A DNA stretch of 64,000 bases from Okamejei kenojei (Eukaryota). The stretch lies in contig CM069131.1 in assembly GCA_035221665.1 (NCBI GenBank), forward strand, positions 75,454,001 through 75,518,000, in the 5' to 3' direction. Of the stretch, positions 13,600-54,312 are shown piece by piece. The translations under genes were made by a program, and so were the position numbers. The notes under the pieces are model-generated. The model saw nothing but the letters and a program-made list of their open reading frames with translations, ran no database searches and was not told the DNA's origin. Position 1 is the first letter of the stretch. Every line of letters starts with the position of its first letter.

Positions 13600-14250
13600 A
13601 GCTTTGAGCGCAGCGCTACCGCACTGCAGAGACTGGGCAGGAGGCGGAGCCGGGGCTGGGGAGTTGTCGGCAGCAGCAGCAGCTGAAAAGGATCAGAGGT
13701 GAACTGGAGTCGCAGAAAGGTGCGGCCATGGTATTGGGTTTGATGAGTCTAGTGTTGGAGCTGGTGACAATGGTGAGCAGCTCCTGGACAGTGCTGCCCG
13801 CGGCTCTCGTCGTGGCCTTGGCCACTTGGATGTGGTGGAACAGAGGCAGGAGCCGGGAGGAGCCGGAGCCGGAGCCGGAGACCGAGACCCCGACCCCGGG
13901 CGCTGCCGCCGCCGCCGCCGGCAGTGCAGCCAGAGGCAGGGACCGGGACCGGGACCGGGGCCGGGGCGGGCTCCCTGGCAACGGCGCTGCAGGTAAAACC
14001 ACGACTAATACAACGCGTTTTAAAACACTGCGAGTACGAAGCCAAAGCGCGAAAGACTGGAAACGCTCAACAGGTCAGGCAACACCCGCGCAGAGGATCG
14101 GTGACATTTCAAACGTTGACCCCAAGTCGCTTTCCAGAGGTGCTGCCGGACCAACTCAATGCCTCTCTGTTGCAGCGTGTCCGGCCGGCTCACGCCGAAG
14201 GCTGTGTCCAGCCCAGACTACTGGGGTTCTCCAGACTGCCTCGCAAGAGA
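13600..14250. promoter_or_regulatory. CpG-rich island over STBD1 exon 1 (probable promoter/TSS region)
   Basis: Sharp local rise in GC content and CpG density against the AT-rich flanks; contains the Kozak context GCGGCCATGG at 13722-13731. Confidence 0.7.
13728..13992 (+). CDS. STBD1: Starch-binding domain-containing protein 1, coding exon 1 (hydrophobic membrane anchor)
   Basis: Strong Kozak ATG; WTVLPAALVVALATWMWW hydrophobic segment; donor CAG|GTAAAA in phase 1 matches the exon 2 acceptor. Confidence 0.88.
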
Positions 14251-14649: not shown

Positions 14650-15935
14650 AATATAGACAATAGGTGCAGGAGTAGGCCATTCGGCCCTTCGAGCCAGCAC
14701 CGCCATTCAATATGATCACAGCTGATCATCCAAAATCACTATTCTGTTCTGGATTTTTCTCCTATATCCCTTGGTACTAAGAGCTAAATCTAACTATCTT
14801 GAAAACATTAAGTGAATTGGCCTCCACTGCCTTCTTTTGCAGAGAATTCCACAGATTCACACCTCTGGGAGATTTTTTTCCTCATCTCAGTCCTTCCTTG
14901 TTCTGGACTCTCCCAACATTGGATTTTTTTCCCCTGCATCTACCCTGTCCAATCCTCTAAGAATGTTATATGTTTCTATACGTTTCTAAATTCCAGTGAA
15001 TACAAGCCCAGTTGACCCATTCTTTCATCATAAAGTCCCGCCATCCTGGGAATTAACCTGGTGAACCTTTGCTGCACTCTCTCAATTGCAATAATGTCCT
15101 TCCCCAAATTAAGAGACCAAAATTGCACACAATACTCCAGGTGTGGTCTCACCAGGGCCCTGTACAACTGCAGCAGGACCTCCTTGCTCCTAAACTCAAA
15201 TCCTCTTGCAATGAAGGCCAATATGCCATTAGCTTTCTTCACTGCCCGCTGTACCTGCATGCTTGCTTTCAGTGACTTTTACTAGAATGTTGCCAGGGTT
15301 CCAGCAACTATGTTACAGAGAAAGGTTGAACAAGTTAGGTCTTTATTCTTTGGAGCGCAGAAGGTTAAGGGGGGACTTGATTGAGGTCTTTAAAATGATG
15401 AAAGGGATAGACAGAGTTGACGTGGATACGTTTTTCCCATTGAGGGTAGGGAAGATTCAAACAAGAGGGCATGACATGAGAATTAAGGGACAGAGGTTTC
15501 GGGGTAACGTGAGGGGGAACTTCTTTACTCAGAGGGTGGTGGCTGTGTGGAATCAGCTTCCAGCAGAAGTGGTGGAGGCAGGATCGATTTTAACATTTAA
15601 GAGTAAAGTGGATAGGTATATGGACATGAAGGGAATGGAGGGGTATGGTCTGAGTGCAGGTAGATGGGACTAGGGGAAAACAAATGGTCGGCACGGACTG
15701 GAAGGGCCGAGAGGGCCTGTTTCCGTGCTGTAATTGTTATATGGTTATATGGTTATATGTACAAACACACCCAGGTGTCGTTGCACCTCCCCTTCTCCTA
15801 ATCTGACACCATTCAGATAATAATCTGCCTTCCTGTTCTTGCCACCAAAGTGGATAACCTAATTTATCCCCATTATACTGCATCTGCCATGCTTCTGCCC
15901 ATTCACCCAACCCATCCAAGTCCTCCTCGCAACTC
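14650..15935 (-). mobile_element. CR1 fragment in the STBD1 intron, interrupted by a second CR1
   Basis: ORF 14976..15260 ([13 protein letters not shown]); the element resumes at ~15760 (WAEAWQMQYN). Confidence 0.85.
15278..15758 (+). mobile_element. CR1 3' end (different subfamily) nested in the previous element
   Basis: ORF 15263..15673 FTRMLPG...RGDLIEVFK...FFTQRVV; (atatggtt)n tail. Confidence 0.85.
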
Positions 15936-16174
15936 GTACTGCAACCTTGCTCTAATGATAATAATTGGCAACAGTTCATGGGAGCGATTTTGATCATGAG
16001 CTGCAACAGTTTGAACTCCACATTTATGAATCGGTTCAGACAACAGATTATTCAGTGTTGCAGGAGCGAATAAGGTTTGGCAACAGATCAGGTCGGCGAG
16101 TCCAGCCGCTTCCTTCGAGGAGGCGTATCTGTCTGTCCGTGTCTGTCTGTGCCAGAACAACGCCAGTCCTGAGT

Positions 16175-16650
16175 CATAGATTAGATTAATATAGTGTAGA
16201 AACAGGCCCAACTTGCACACACTGGCCAACAATGTCCCAGCTACCCTAGTACCACTTGCCTGTGCTTGGTCCATATCCCTCCAAACCTGTCCTATCCATG
16301 TACCTGTCCAACTGTTTCTTAAACGATGGGATAGACCCAGCCACAACTACCTCCTCTGGCATACACTCGCCACCCTCTGTGTGGAAAAAGTTACCTTGCG
16401 GGTTCCTATTAAATCTTTTCCCCTTCACCTTGAACCTATGTCCTCTGGTCCTTGATCCCCTACTATGGGTAAAAGACTCTGTGCATCTACCCGATCTATT
16501 CCTCTCATGATTTTGTGTACCTCCATAAGATCTCCCTTCATCCTCCTACGCTCCATGGGATAGAGACCCAGCCAATTCACCTCTCCCTCACATAGCTCTA
16601 GTGACAACCTCTAGTTCTGGCAACATCCTCATAAAGACTGTCTATATTCT
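16175..16650 (-). mobile_element. CR1 3' fragment
   Basis: ORFs 16246..16428 and 16425..16607 (GLYPMERRRMKGDLMEVHKI). Confidence 0.8.
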
Positions 16651-17201
16651 GCTCTAGGGCCAACTAATACTGAACCAACACTCCCTCACAAAGAAATATT
16701 TGCAAATTGAAAGAATTCACTGGCTAATTGTTGAAGAGTTTAAATGTTAAACTGCGCACATTGCTGAAATTAGAATATGAACCCAATATTGTATCTGGGC
16801 AAACCCCACAAAGATTCGAGCATCAGATAAAACTGTGGCTGTCTGGACCAATTAGAACTGTTGCCAGTTGTCAAGAGGTTATTGTTAATGTTCTAACACT
16901 CCACTATTACAGTGCTCTTCCCTCAAGACACAGCTCTCTTTAACAGGTACTGTCTGGGAAACTAATTTTTGATACTAAGGCAAGCAGTCCATTATTCTTA
17001 AACAAGTTACCGTAGCATTTGTTTTCAGTAGATATTCTTGACCAGGACCTATTTGTTTAAATGCCTTGATTCAATTGGAACAATATTTGTCTTGACTTTT
17101 TTGGGTGGGGAAACTAAGGATTTTGAAAACCTCCATCTGTTTGCAAGTGATTATGTGGTTAAAATATTAATGGATTTAACATGTGGTCTCTCTTTTCACA
17201 G

Positions 17202-18130
17202 TTAAAACTGATATTGAACGGGATAATTTACTTGAGTTCAAAGAAAGAACCGAGTTAAAAATTGGTGTGCAGTCATCTTCATTTAAACAGAAATCTGTTG
17301 ATTTGGAGTCTAAAGACATTTTGGACACTATGGTCAGCGATCAGAGGGAAAATGACTTTGTTTCTGAACTATCAACGAAGCAAGATTCTGCTGCTGAACA
17401 GATAAGTGACAAGATGCAAATTGAGCCCATAACTCAACCAACGAGTGGTGGGGAACGTCCTGTCCATAATGCACACTTCACTGAGTATAGCTTGGGACAG
17501 GAAAATAAACACGTTTGTGAAAAACTGAAGCCAATTCCGAGTACTGAAGAGGTGTTCAACCAATATGAGCTTGGAGACAAAGCTTTGGATCTTTCTTCAG
17601 CGGTTGAACAGAAATTTGGTGGTACTGAGAGTCGTCTCCTTATTCAGACTAATAAAGACGGCAGTGAGACTAATGCTGATGTGCCTAGTAACTTGAATAT
17701 CATTGAAACTAAAATGGAACAAGACAAAAGAAAAAGCATTAAGTTGGTTTTGAAAGATGAATCCGAAAGAACAGCTGCAAGCTTGGAATCTGAAAATATA
17801 CCCAAGAAAGTTGCTGCAGTTTCCCCTTTGCCTGTTAATAATGTCTCAGTGAGTTTTAATGTTCACTATGTTACCTGCTCAAATTCTCAGATCCTTGCAG
17901 TGACAGGCAGCCATGAGTGCCTGGGACAGTGGGAGAATTATGCCCCATTGAAACCGGACAAGGATGGATTCTGGTCTAATTCTATCCTGCTCCCAGTGAA
18001 TTTAAAATTTGAGTGGAAATATGTGGTGGTGGAAAATGGTAAGATCTGGCGATGGGAGGAATGCCCGAATAGATGGCTGGAGACCAGCCATGAAGATATG
18101 GAAATGTATCAATGTTGGGGTTACCCCTGA
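17202..18130 (+). CDS. STBD1: STBD1 coding exon 2 (acidic linker and C-terminal CBM20 glycogen-binding domain)
   Basis: Acceptor ctctcttttcacAG|TT in phase 1. C-terminus VSFNVHYVT...LAVTGSHECLGQW...GFWS...FEWKYVVVENGKIWRWEECPNRWL is a CBM20. KKVAAVSPLP precedes it as in STBD1. Two-exon structure and position next to CCDC158 agree. Spliced CDS is 1194 nt (397 aa). Confidence 0.93.
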
Positions 18131-18160
18131 GTCCCTCAACAGAAGTTAGTTACAGCAGAA

Positions 18161-18564
18161 TGTTAAAGAAGGAACTGTAGATGCTGGAGAATCAAGGGTA
18201 CACAAAAGGCTGGAGAAACTCAGCGGGTGCAGCAGCATCTAAGGAGCGAAGGAGATAGGCGACGTTTCGGGTCGAGACCCTTCTTCAGACTGGTCAGGGA
18301 AACGAGAGATATCGACGGTGATGTGGAGAGATAAAGAACAATGAATGAAAGATATGCAAAAAAGCCATTGTTCCCTTTATCATCGATACTTTTTTGCATA
18401 TCTTTCATTCATTTTTCTTTATCTCTCCAAATCACTGTCGATATCTCTCGTTTCCCTGATCCCTGACCAGTCTGAAGAAGGGTCTCGACCCGAAACGTCG
18501 CCTATCTCCTTCGCTCCTTAGATGCTGCTGCACCCGCTGAGTTTCTCCAGCCTTTTGTGTACCC
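18161..18564. mobile_element. Penelope pLTR fold-back insertion in the STBD1 3' UTR
   Basis: Inverted arms 18194-18364 and 18389-18566, a 33-nt tail at 18161-18193, and a 15-bp TSD ttagttacagcagaa at 18146-18160 and 18565-18579. Confidence 0.92.
18472..18499 (+). ncRNA. Minimal hammerhead ribozyme motif, sense to STBD1 mRNA (antisense twin at 18261-18288)
   Basis: CTGAAGA A GGGTC TC GACCC GAAAC GTC. Confidence 0.7.
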
Positions 18565-19015
18565 TTAGTTACAGCAGAAGGCAGCTGTAATGCACTGATT
18601 GATATTGCAGGACGGAGCTGAAGTTGAGCTTTGTTCATTAAACTTTTCCCTTCCTCAAATAAGGAAGACTAATTCCTGCTGTTACCCAACTCTTCTCACA
18701 GGCTCAACTGGTTTAATAAGAGTCTGCTGTATCTTCCCCATTTATTTCTGTACTTCAATTTTTAGATTAATAACTTGTCGGCATTTTCACAGCTTGAAGT
18801 CCAGGCTGCTTAATGGTAACTATTTACTGCTTTCTGCAAGTATCTTAACTGTCATCTCCTTTCTTTACCAGAGGACAGTTCCTGTAGTAACTTAGCTAGG
18901 GCAATAAGTATAAAATATTCGGATGGTTATTTGTTACTGATTAATATGTACAAGACCACAAACCTAATTTTTAAATCTGTATTGTCAGAAATGATTTCAA
19001 TTAAAGATGAATTTC

Positions 19016-19021
19016 AATAAA
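19016..19021 (+). terminator. Candidate STBD1 polyadenylation signal
   Basis: First AATAAA I found after the stop codon; an ATTAAA lies at 19000-19005. Confidence 0.5.
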
Positions 19022-19439
19022 TACTTTTGGATGAAGTGGTATTGAATATTTATTAAATTTCCAGACTCTCGTGTGTAAAATGCTTTGGTATGCAGTGAAA
19101 GGTGGAACTAACTGAATACAATTTGTATGTAATCAGTTTGAGCATAAATGGAGCAATAGTCTTGTAGCTTTAAAGGGAAAGATCAATTGATGTTGGCTCG
19201 TTTCCATCTCTACCTGAAGAAATGCTTGAACTATAATTATTAAGACTTGCACTTGTGAATATTGATGTGGGTCATTTGACTATATTGCAAAATATTTGTG
19301 ATATTTTGATACTAGTTGTAAATACAATTTTCCTACCAAACCTCAATGGAAATGGTTGAAGTTGAAATCTGTCTGAGCTTGATCAGAATTTATTTCACAT
19401 GACAGTGCTTTACATGGGTGCTACGATAGTTTTGAATGC

Positions 19440-21195
19440 ATAAGTTTATTGGCTAAGTATGTACATGTACTACAAATTTGCCTTGGTGCTCTGCTCGCAA
19501 GTAACAACACGACATGCAGTAACATTAAATGACACATGAAACATTAAAAATAAAACATTACAGTTTAAACAAGTGAATTAAATAAATACCAGAGCAAAAT
19601 GATGCCACAGATGTTTGGTTATTGAGTACTATCAATTCAACTGCCAACTGTGTCACCTCCTGTCTGTAGGCAGATCCTTCCCATCCTGGATCAGTCCAAT
19701 CAGGGTTGTGTCATCCACAAACTTGAGATGCCTGTGGAGGTGCAGTTGGTGTAGAGAGAATAAAGGAGAGGAGGGAGTACATAGCCTTGCGGTGCTCCTA
19801 TGCTGAGGGTTTGCGGTTCCGAGATGTGCTTTCCCAACCACACATGCAGCATCCTGTCTGTCAGGAAGCTGGTGATCCACCGACAGAGGGGTTCAGGCAC
19901 AGTCAACTTGGAGAGCTTGGAGTGTCATAGCTCTGGCACAATGGTGTTGAATGCAGAGCTAAAATCAATAAAAAATCCTTGGAAAGGTCCCCTGGCGGTC
20001 TAGGTGCTGGAGGATGATGTGCAGGCCTAGGTTGACTGCGTCATCCACAGATCTATTTGGCCGGTATGCAAACAGCAGGGGGTTTGTGATATTGTTCAGG
20101 TGGGCCAGCACGAGTCTTTCAAGGGTCTTCATGACTACAGAGAGTGCAACAGGCCTGTAGTCATTAATACCAGCAATCCTTGCCTTTCGGGGTGCAGGGA
20201 CAATAGTGGGGACATTGAAACAGGCAGGGACGGTACAGGTTTGCAGGGACTGGTTGAAAAATGTCCGTGTAGACCAGTGCAAGTTGTTCGGCACAGAGCC
20301 TGTGGGTAGAGGGAGAAACATTGTTCGGTCCTGGAGATTTCCGGCTTTTCTGTCTCCTGAATAGATTTTCCACATCCTCATTTGGTATTGTTAATGATGG
20401 AGAAGTGGCCAGACTGATGTTGGGCAGCACAGTCAGGCTGTAAGTGGGTGTGAAGTGGTGCTTGGGGAGGAGTGGGTGGGGGAGGGTCCAGTCTTTGCTG
20501 ACTGGAGTTGGGCTGTGAGTAGATGTGAAGTGTTGGTTGAGAAGGGGTTACCAGGGTTCAGTTTCTGTTTATCAAACCTGCAATAGAACCCGTGCAGGTC
20601 ATTGGTCAGCTGACAATTGTCCAAAGAGCAGGGAGCTTTCCTCTTGTAGCTGGTGATTTCTTGCAAGCTCTTCCAAACTGAAGAAGTCATTAGCTGAGAA
20701 CTTGCTCCTCGACTTCCCAGAGTACCTTTCCTTGGCAGCTCTGATTCCTCTTCTCAGCTTGTACTTGGCCTGCCTGTAGAGGTCTGCATCCCCGCTCCTG
20801 TAGGCCTCATCTTTAGACTGGCGGAGCTGTCTGAGTTCCGCTGTAAACCAGGGCTTGTCATTGTTGAACCTGACCTGGGTCCTAGTGGGAATGCAACTGT
20901 CCTCACAAAAGCTGACATATAATGCTACAGTGTCTGTATATTCATTGAGGCTTGTGGTTGCTTCCCTGAACACATTCCAATCCGTGCAGTCAAAGCAGGA
21001 CTGTAGGTTTTCAATGCCCTCACTTGTCTACCTTTTCATTTTTCTGACCACAAGTCTAGCAGAGTTTAGTTTCTGCCTGTAGGTTGGAATAAGGTGAACT
21101 AAACAATGATCAGAGCCGCCCGGGGAACAGAGCGATATGTGTTCTTGATTGAAGTGTAGCAGTGATCGAGTGTTCTCTCCCCTCTGATGGGGCAG
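19440..21195 (-). mobile_element. Rex1/Babar-type LINE ORF2 remnant
   Basis: SDHCLVHLIPTYRQKL, NDKPWFTAELRQLR, NDYRPVALSVVMKTLERLVL...FAYRPNRSVDDAV, GAPQG and KFVDDTTLIGLI. Confidence 0.85.
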
Positions 21196-41483: not shown

Positions 41484-41617
41484 TTAAGAAAGAACTGCAG
41501 ATGCTGGAAAAATCGAAGGAACAGTTGACATTTCGGGTCGACCCTTCTTCAGCCTGTTCCTTCGCTCCATAGATGCTGCCTCACCCCCTGAGTTTCTCCA
41601 GCATTTTTGTCTACCTT
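41484..41617. mobile_element. Short Penelope pLTR fold-back insertion
   Basis: 14-bp TSD ataattaaaacagt (41470-41483 and 41618-41631), tail aagaactgcagatgctgg, degenerate antisense hammerhead. Confidence 0.8.
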
Positions 41618-47096: not shown

Positions 47097-47289
47097 TGGA
47101 AGGAACTGCAGGTTTAAACCAAAGATAGACACAAAAAGCTGGAACAAGTCAGTAGGTCAGGCAGCATCTCTGGAGAAAAGGAATAGGTAACGTTTTGAGT
47201 CTGAAGAAGAGTCTGGACCCGAAACGTCACCTATTCCTTTTCTCCAGAGATGGTGCCTGACCCGCTAAGTTACTCCAGATTTTTATGTC
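47097..47289. mobile_element. Penelope pLTR fold-back insertion with hammerhead motif (47201-47228, +)
   Basis: 15-bp TSD ttactccttttttca (47082-47096 and 47290-47304); inverted arms; CTGAAGAAGAGTCTGGACCCGAAACGTC. Confidence 0.85.
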
Positions 47290-53550: not shown

Positions 53551-53819
53551 TACCCAAACAACTGTACACAAAATTGAGACACATGAAACTGCAGATGCTG
53601 GAATCTTGAGTAAAACACAAAGTGCTAGAGTAACTCAGCGGGTCAGCAGCCTGTATGGAGGGAATAGACAGACAACGTTTTGGGTCGGATTCAATGATGG
53701 ATCGCAACCCAAAACATTGCCTGTCCATTTCGTCCACAGATGCTGCCTGACTCCTGAGTTACTTCAACACTTAGTGTTTTACTACACACAGAATAAACAT
53801 TGCGACATTAAGGTCATTA

Positions 53820-54312
53820 AGGTGTATAAAATCATGAGAGGAACAGATCGGGTAGATTCACAGAGGAAAAAAGGGTCTCGACCCGAAACGTCACCCATTC
53901 CTTCTCTCCAGAGATGCTGCCTGGCCCGCTGAATTACTCCAGCATTTTGTGTCTACCTTCAATTTAAACCAGCATCTGCAGTTGTTTCCTGCACAGAGTC
54001 TCTTGCCCAGAGTAGGGGAATCAAGGACCAGAGGACATAGGTTAAAGGTGAAGGGGAAAAGATTTAATAGGAATCCGAAGGCTAACCTTTTCACACAGTG
54101 GGTGGTGGGTGTATGGAACAAGATGCCAGAGGACGAAGTTGAGGCTCGGACTATCCCAACATTGAAAAAACAGTTAGAGAGGTACATGGATAGGACAGGT
54201 TTGGAGGGATATTGACCAAACGTGGGCAGGTGGGACCAGTGTAGCTGGGACATGTTGACCGGTGTGGGCAAGTTGGGCCGAAGCGTCTGTTTCCACACTG
54301 TATCACTCTATG
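53820..54312 (+). mobile_element. CR1 3' end containing a Penelope pLTR insert (53866-53991)
   Basis: cacagag is duplicated around the insert, which retains GGGTCTCGACCCGAAACGTC but lacks the CTGA box. Confidence 0.8.

Follow-up and report, generated by a model that had tools for sequence, protein, structure and literature searches.

A young, lineage-limited Penelope hairpin in the STBD1 3' UTR, most likely tolerated, with a hammerhead motif that is likely an inactive passenger

Introduction

When a Penelope-like element leaves a long hairpin a few tens of nucleotides past a stop codon, with a hammerhead motif in one arm and its antisense copy in the other, does the host mRNA gain a switch or a passenger? 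This is the question raised by the STBD1 locus in the window, by which we mean the whole 64,000-nucleotide stretch of DNA that was analysed. A preliminary description had proposed a self-masking switch, in which the hairpin duplex hides the ribozyme until editing or unwinding releases a cut that removes the poly(A) tail, and had named a neutral recent insertion as the alternative. That alternative is the best fit to the evidence assembled here: we consider it probable that the locus carries a young, lineage-limited, head-to-head Penelope hairpin in the STBD1 3' UTR, most likely tolerated, and that the hammerhead is likely an inactive passenger. Because the insert is one of an estimated tens of thousands of such hairpins and its ribozyme motif is likely buried and incapable of cutting, it is probably ordinary.

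The host gene and its 3' UTR

The two coding exons upstream of the insert join into an open frame of 397 amino acids. The exon 2 product contains a CBM_20 domain, and the best PDB match is STBD1 (E 5e-36), the gene to which we assign the locus on these sequence matches. The features of the host gene are as follows:

13728..13992, + strand: STBD1 exon 1, coding part (265 nt), with a hydrophobic N-terminus; GT donor at 13993.
17202..18130, + strand: STBD1 exon 2, coding part, preceded by an AG acceptor, with a C-terminal CBM20 and the stop codon TGA at 18128-18130.
19016..19021, + strand: AATAAA, the likely main poly(A) signal, to which contig ends at 19030 and 19035 in two studies give a weak hint.

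Neither AATAAA nor ATTAAA occurs between the STBD1 stop and the insert's end. The preliminary description placed the insert upstream of the first AATAAA it found, at 19016, and this holds for the earlier signals as well: ATTAAA at 18637 and at 19000 precede that AATAAA, yet both lie downstream of the insert. The ATTAAA and AATAAA hexamers of the window also include copies at 19052, 19549 and 19581, beside those at 18637 and 19000.

Architecture of the insert

The 404-bp insert begins 30 nt past the STBD1 stop and is bracketed by a 15-bp target-site duplication, TTAGTTACAGCAGAA, whose copies (18146-18160 and 18565-18579) are 100% identical; as a control, a longest flanking repeat of at least 12 nt was found at 4 of 300 random places. 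From left to right, the insert and its flanks comprise:

18146..18160, + strand: target-site duplication, left copy; a single copy is implied at organism B's empty site (run X9).
18161..18193, - strand: Penelope 'tail' of 33 nt, present on the left arm only and outside the long stem.
18194..18364, - strand: left arm, the 3' end of a 5'-truncated element, antisense in the mRNA; one TCCCTGA unit is missing.
18261..18288, - strand: antisense copy of the minimal hammerhead core.
18365..18388, no strand: apex or loop; CCA, then element sequence from about 18368, a short-microhomology junction.
18389..18564, + strand: right arm, the sense 3' end of the element without the tail; derived changes at 18414, 18430 and 18436.
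18470..18501, + strand: minimal type-I hammerhead motif, with the core at 18472-18499 and the nominal cut at 18499/18500.
18480-18483 with 18488-18491, + strand: hammerhead helix II.
18495-18498, + strand: palindromic ACGT without a loop III.
18470-18471 with 18500-18501, + strand: hammerhead helix I, 2 bp.
18565..18579, + strand: target-site duplication, right copy, of which the first TT is common to the element end.

Global alignment of the inverted arms (18194-18364 against 18389-18566, with 24 nt between them) gives three substitutions and one 7-nt indel, and the core CTGAAGA-A-GGGT-CTCG-ACCC-GAAAC-GTC at 18472-18499 (+) has an identical copy at 18261-18288 (-). The insertion flanked by a target-site duplication, the reverse-complementary arms with about three substitutions, a 7-nt bulge and a 24-nt loop, and the sense core with its exact antisense copy were thus all correctly recognised in the preliminary description. 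Its distance from the stop codon, 30 nt, is right for the start of the insert and wrong for the hairpin proper: since the 33-nt tail on the left arm is unpaired, the stem begins 63 nt past the stop. The predicted fold of 18131-18600 reaches -351.5 kcal/mol (z -36), a value that none of 100 shuffles equalled. The outer 107 bp of the stem are perfectly complementary and all four arm differences lie near the apex, a clustering that conversion or constraint could explain.

The element family of origin

The family that the insert matches is abundant (2912 candidates in the first pass, 40 of them scored), with nine core matches in the window. Long copies run unbroken from the insert's terminus upstream, at 94% identity over 1798 nt, and their upstream frames, although broken, carry reverse transcriptase (RT) motifs, DKG, a CX4CxxC linker and a GIY-YIG domain with CCHH (copies L091 and L092). 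The frames of both copies contain ADKGG and IYCIRCSRCQMIYIGET..EH..HF, corresponding to DKG and to CCHH with CxxC inside the GIY-YIG core, and the linker between RT and endonuclease reads CNRKKCYIC in L092 and is degraded in L091. Pfam matches to these frameshifted pieces are significant, yet all fall under the curated cut-offs (GIY-YIG, E 4e-4; RVT_1, E 2e-6 and 3e-4), and one of the four long-copy pieces searched against Pfam has no match. The available text of PMC8557442 is the source of the DKG, CCHH and CX2-5CxxC definitions for canonical endonuclease-bearing (EN+) Penelope-like elements. By its sequence motifs, the family can be classed as a canonical Penelope-like element with RT and GIY-YIG, and, by the same motif definitions, the CX2-5CxxC linker assigns it to the Neptune/Nematis type. 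The Penelope origin first proposed for the insert is borne out by RT and GIY-YIG frames that are continuous with its terminus.

The insertion unit described in the accessible part of Craig et al. 2021 (PMC8557442) has the same inverted truncated copies, one-sided tail and duplication, and the same order of RT followed by GIY-YIG; the STBD1 insert differs from that unit in that both of its arms are shorter than 210 nt and contain no ORF, and in its placement in a host 3' UTR.

A non-LTR retrozyme was also considered and rejected. Such elements are tandem arrays in head-to-tail order in which every unit has a type-I hammerhead, as defined in the available portion of 10.64898/2026.07.22.740005, whereas the copies here stand head to head.

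How the insertion formed

The 3' ends of 38 young family matches fall into two groups, 12 at 0-2 nt and 20 at 33-36 nt from the end of the tail. Poseidon of Anolis (Frangieh et al. 2024, PMC11167929) has, in the part of that paper available, the same two 3' ends about 33 nt apart downstream of the hammerhead; there, two internal RT starts define the tail, and both strands are cut and extended. Poseidon belongs to a different clade, since the zinc-finger linker present in the STBD1 insert's family is absent in Penelope/Poseidon, and the mechanism is carried over to the present family by analogy.

In the arm comparison, where 30 of the 54 copies are search matches biased towards the STBD1 insert sequence, a G at 18440 is common to both arms and found in 2 of 35 other copies. 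Sharing so rare a letter argues for a single event and a single source copy behind both arms. On the right arm, all three substitutions are derived (family frequencies 1, 1 and 3 of 35), and the 7-nt loss on the left arm, which about 11 of 35 other copies have likewise, came from slippage in a tandem unit. At the apex, the antisense sequence ending in AAAAAAG jumps to CCA and then continues as sense TTGTTCCC, with microhomologies of 3-4 nt. The insert is consistent with a pair of cDNAs that started from staggered nicks and were then linked by microhomology, and we propose that it would have formed along the following steps:

(i) The endonuclease of the element would nick both strands about 15 bp apart.

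(ii) Reverse transcription would proceed from both nicks and begin at two internal starts about 33 nt apart, so as to yield one arm with the tail and one without.

(iii) The two short cDNAs would be joined at the apex via short microhomologies.

(iv) Both arms would derive from a single source copy and drift afterwards.

Two other origins bear on the same apex. Fold-back synthesis followed by an apex deletion is possible. That the hairpin is instead a mobile, non-autonomous fold-back element, copied whole from a master hairpin, strikes us as extremely improbable: a separate insertion on C21, flanked by a duplication of its own, does have almost the same apex, as a mobile unit would predict, but the apex pattern matches only two places in the genome, the tail stands on opposite arms in the two, and the apices all differ among 26 sampled head-to-head pairs.

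The C21 insertion is the hairpin at L003 1501-1910 (G000:C21:33369237-33369646), whose near-identical apex lies at G000:C21:33369456; the apex that it shares with the STBD1 hairpin suggests a junction hot spot.

How common such hairpins are

The frequency of head-to-head pairs was estimated from 100 stretches of 10 kb, of which four had been picked for long copies and were dropped, leaving 96 at round coordinates on C1-C30 (960 kb). BLAST found 251 terminal matches in this sample. Among neighbours within 300 nt, 32 pairs are head to head, 7 tail to tail and 15 tandem; within 60 nt the counts are 26, 1 and 5 (26 vs 1, p 4e-7). The tail is confined to one arm in 22 of the 26 close head-to-head pairs, and 11 of the 26 have a flanking repeat of at least 9 nt, compared with 8 of 300 random places. 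Extrapolated from the 960-kb sample alone, the genome would hold about 75,000 head-to-head pairs (95% range 49,000-110,000), or some 27 per Mb, and, with a stem of at least 60 bp in 14 of the 26 pairs, about 40,000 with stems of that length; in 6 of the 26, the arm-to-arm stem is shorter than 30 bp, and some of these are perhaps not single events.

A stem as long as that at STBD1 occurs in 1 of the 26 sampled pairs (172 bp). The hammerhead core is kept in at least one arm in 10 and in both arms in 2, which places the STBD1 copy at the long, intact end of the range. A strict core pattern finds 44 cores in 960 kb (about 46 per Mb) and only one close pair; this count misses most pairs because many break inside the core, and BLAST was used for the pair count for that reason.

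The inverted 5'-truncated copy with a one-sided tail of 30-40 bp is a published insertion product (PMC8557442, accessible part), and minimal hammerhead pairs 100-700 bp apart on opposite strands are described in the available text of PMC4209133. The architecture of the STBD1 hairpin is the family's routine, already published insertion product.

Many pairs in the 960-kb sample have their pivot 110-135 nt from the element 3' end, a position at or within the hammerhead core, and one or both cores are often broken as a result. The DNA runs of organisms A and B contain many such joints, and the RNA runs contain a few. A young near-perfect hairpin at L091 8003-8225 (G000:C4, near 85460500) has a 14-nt duplication, a 3-nt loop and a pivot at the start of the hammerhead core.

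Presence in the mRNA

Four public runs were aligned, as contigs only, to 16900-19750: X5, X6 and X13 from organism A and X9 from organism B. X6 and X13, catalogued as unknown and as probably DNA, respectively, were taken as RNA. In X6, exon depth is about 20 times intron depth; in X13, the intron is uncovered, and one contig picks up at the exon 2 acceptor after 243 letters of other sequence. The RNA contigs begin at 17199, in the exon 2 acceptor region.

From the left, an X6 contig runs out of the coding region and 33 nt into the insert's left end; from the right, 27 nt of the insert's right end, a length under the 31-letter bridging rule, are included in an X13 contig that extends to 19035. 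The main X6 coverage ends at 19030, just past the AATAAA at 19016, and the DNA runs continue beyond. The junction contigs, together with the lack of any poly(A) signal before the insert's end, place the insert most likely within the UTR. The STBD1 3' UTR thus most likely includes it, with contigs reaching in from both sides and none spanning the whole. The claim that the insert is part of the mRNA is therefore upheld by RNA contigs that cross into both of its ends, in an analysis of contigs none of which spans 18161-18564. A low-depth X6 contig that extends to 19246 makes alternative 3' ends possible, all of them past the insert.

Contig depth falls from 623 before the insert to about 245 after it in X6, and from 40 to 23 in X13; these are single depths per contig from libraries of unrecorded type, and contig depth cannot rank the parts of a gene. 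We do not count the drop as evidence, because a poly(A)-selected library combined with efficient cleavage would slope the opposite way. The insert arms themselves are covered by thousands of family contigs, and no difference between RNA and DNA could be assigned to the STBD1 locus.

Age and distribution

Presence and absence among individuals and relatives, a check proposed at the outset, came out as a filled site in all four organism-A sources (the assembly, X5, X6 and X13) and an empty one in organism B. X5, a DNA run from another organism-A sample, reaches 29 nt into the left end of the insert and 22 nt into the right. In X9, DNA from organism B, one contig of 2459 nt joins 18148 directly to 18567, which is the empty site. 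Organism B differs from the assembly at 39 of 2156 aligned bases (1.8%), and the arms of the insert differ from each other at 3 of 171. X13 is about 1% different from the assembly and has many alleles in common with organism B, yet it has the insert's right junction; its left contig ends at 18142 with four unmatched letters. Presence in four of four organism-A sources, the diverged X13 among them, indicates that the insert may be fixed. Judged by these sequences, with the empty site checked in one relative, the insert is young and lineage-limited. That it is under selection is possible.

Can the hammerhead cut?

The motif has the CUGAnGA, GAAA and UH core, helix II and the palindromic 15.2-16.2 of a minimal type-I Penelope-like hammerhead. 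The stretch GAAAC-GUC leaves no loop between C15.2 and G16.2, and hence no loop III, so that helix III requires two RNAs, paired with each other by the palindrome ACGU; a second copy is needed in trans. In helix I, positions 1, 2 and 3 are paired in 40, 39 and 11 of 44 family cores, and the best flank duplex at the STBD1 motif is worth -0.6 kcal/mol. When the whole window was scanned with Rfam at gathering thresholds, no match came up, which is no proof of absence, as minimal hammerheads may fall outside the models. Folded alone, the right arm gives no hammerhead (z 0.14). Two 65-nt copies co-fold at -26.7 kcal/mol into a structure that is not the dimer hammerhead, and the dimer hammerhead (two helices II with an intermolecular helix III) has -12.7 kcal/mol without helix I, both being nearest-neighbour energies that ignore tertiary contacts in the core.

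In the fold of the whole UTR, 28 of the 28 core bases are paired, in agreement with the proposal that the duplex hides the ribozyme. Freeing 18470-18501 is predicted to cost 69.8 kcal/mol unedited, 58.4 with every left-arm A read as G and 50.4 with every one non-pairing. Random editing of 50% of the As in both arms brings the mean to 63 or 43 kcal/mol, with a lowest value of 24 in 40 draws, and leaves all five core As intact in 3% of molecules. Given this opening cost and the loss of catalytic As, editing frees no active ribozyme in the model, and because helix III cannot close within one RNA, unmasking alone would be insufficient; the stem might be opened by a helicase or by the element's protein, with a partner RNA still required. 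In the mRNA, the perfect 107-bp outer stem would bury the core, and cutting would in any case require it to dimerise with another RNA.

The minimal hammerheads of Cervera and De la Pena 2014 (PMC4209133, available text) have the same extra nucleotide between 9 and 10.1, the same G10.1-C11.1 and palindromic 15.2-16.2 and likewise no loop III, and close pairs of motifs on opposite strands are already described there. Single motifs of this class do not cleave, according to the same portion of the paper, and dimers and trimers cleave little. Helices II and I have 4 and 2 bp here, compared with 7-8 and 4-5 bp in S. mansoni, and the 2-bp helix I is also that of the D. virilis hammerhead. Cleavage by the anole motif requires the element's protein, and RNA-seq reads show no ends at the site, in the accessible text of PMC11167929. 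The discontinuous hammerhead of mammalian Clec2 3' UTRs (PMC6765202, available part) occupies the same place between stop and poly(A) signal; it is active within one mRNA once its flanking parts meet, and lowers protein expression in vivo. The STBD1 motif, in contrast, is predicted to lie hidden within a duplex, and a close relative lacks it; of the features of a Clec2-like monomer-active ribozyme, a closed helix III and a stable helix I are both lacking, and conservation at the orthologous site is lacking in the one relative compared, where organism B is empty. The analogy with Clec2 drawn in the preliminary description does not carry over, since that ribozyme assembles within one mRNA.

These results bear most directly on a self-masking or element-gated switch, in which the exposed hammerhead would cut at 18499/18500 and the poly(A) tail would be lost. 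In its favour, an intact core sits downstream of the stop and ahead of the poly(A) signal, completely masked; the anole hammerhead shows activity in the presence of the element's protein (PMC11167929, available text), and partner hammerheads are plentiful, with the strict pattern giving some 46 cores per Mb. Set against this are the need for a trans partner, an opening cost that stays high even when the left arm is fully edited, core As that rarely all survive random editing, a right arm that leaves the motif unfolded when folded alone, the low in vitro activity of the class (PMC4209133, accessible part) and the missing insert in a close relative. Nor is there a sign of local tuning: the core is the commonest of the family (14 of 44), core and flanks are family-typical, and the three arm changes, which give two mismatches and one G-U pair, are none of them compensatory. 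We regard such a switch as highly improbable, and its release by editing or unwinding, as first proposed, is unsupported in view of the trans partner and the energy needed for opening, and also of an architecture that is the family's default (26 pairs in 960 kb) and an absence in the close relative. The wider idea that 3' UTR Penelope hairpins form an element-gated control layer, silent as a duplex and cut when the autonomous element's protein and RNA are there to unwind the stem and provide the partner hammerhead, we hold to be very doubtful indeed; if true, any activity of the element, for instance in the germ line, would lead to cleavage of the STBD1 mRNA. A genuine ribozyme switch would mark the first case of a minimal, dimer-dependent hammerhead put to regulatory use in a host mRNA, but the evidence is against it. 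On the folding model, the hammerhead is likely an inactive passenger.

Passive effects of the duplex

A hairpin that cannot cut might yet act as long dsRNA, and measurably alter STBD1 output independently of the ribozyme. The possible routes are translation, nuclear retention, binding of Staufen or ADAR, and Dicer cutting into anti-Penelope siRNAs. The closest parallel is with inverted Alu pairs in human 3' UTRs (Capshew et al. 2012, PMC3458544, available part), which likewise form an intramolecular dsRNA derived from retroelements and expected to be an ADAR substrate; the Alu pairs are two independent inserts, whereas the STBD1 hairpin comes from one event and has a 24-nt loop and about 98% complementarity. 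The predicted duplex in the UTR is very stable, long 3' UTR duplexes in human cells undergo editing, inverted Alus in human 3' UTRs can cut translation 2- to 5-fold independently of editing (same source), and inverted Penelope copies give rise to siRNAs that match the inverted regions in transformed D. melanogaster (PMC3681739, accessible text). However, inverted-Alu reporters whose duplexes stood 21 or 65 nt from the stop showed no drop in translation, a comparison that sets human-cell data beside an STBD1 stem at 63 nt, and export and stability were unchanged by editing or dsRNA (both in the available text of PMC3458544); STBD1, moreover, is well covered in both RNA runs. An effect of this kind is in our judgement unlikely. 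We expect rather that the hairpin, as a tolerated insertion, would be edited by ADAR with little effect on STBD1 output.

Implications

As read here, the STBD1 case matters little; it is a neat instance of an insertion product known from the literature, here placed in a UTR. It is also young, near-perfect, transcribed and absent in a close relative, so that the filled and empty UTRs make a natural test pair, which could tell whether Penelope hairpins in mRNA are edited, diced or neutral. At about 27 head-to-head pairs per Mb, such hairpins could be a main source of intramolecular dsRNA here, as inverted Alus are in primates. A literature search for such hairpins or their editing in cartilaginous fish, with most subscription journals outside its scope, found nothing relevant.

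Other repeats in the window

The window holds three head-to-head pairs, that of STBD1 included. Further pairs in this orientation, older and from the same Penelope family or related ones, lie at 47129-47288, where there is a 15-nt flanking repeat, at 53587-53983 and probably at 41514-41615. At 656-830 and upstream lies a longer 5'-truncated copy on the minus strand, with about 1.25 kb of homology to L023. Pieces of other retroelements, of LINE type and with RT-like frames, are found at 14976-16545, in the STBD1 intron, and at 19600-20390, downstream of the gene.
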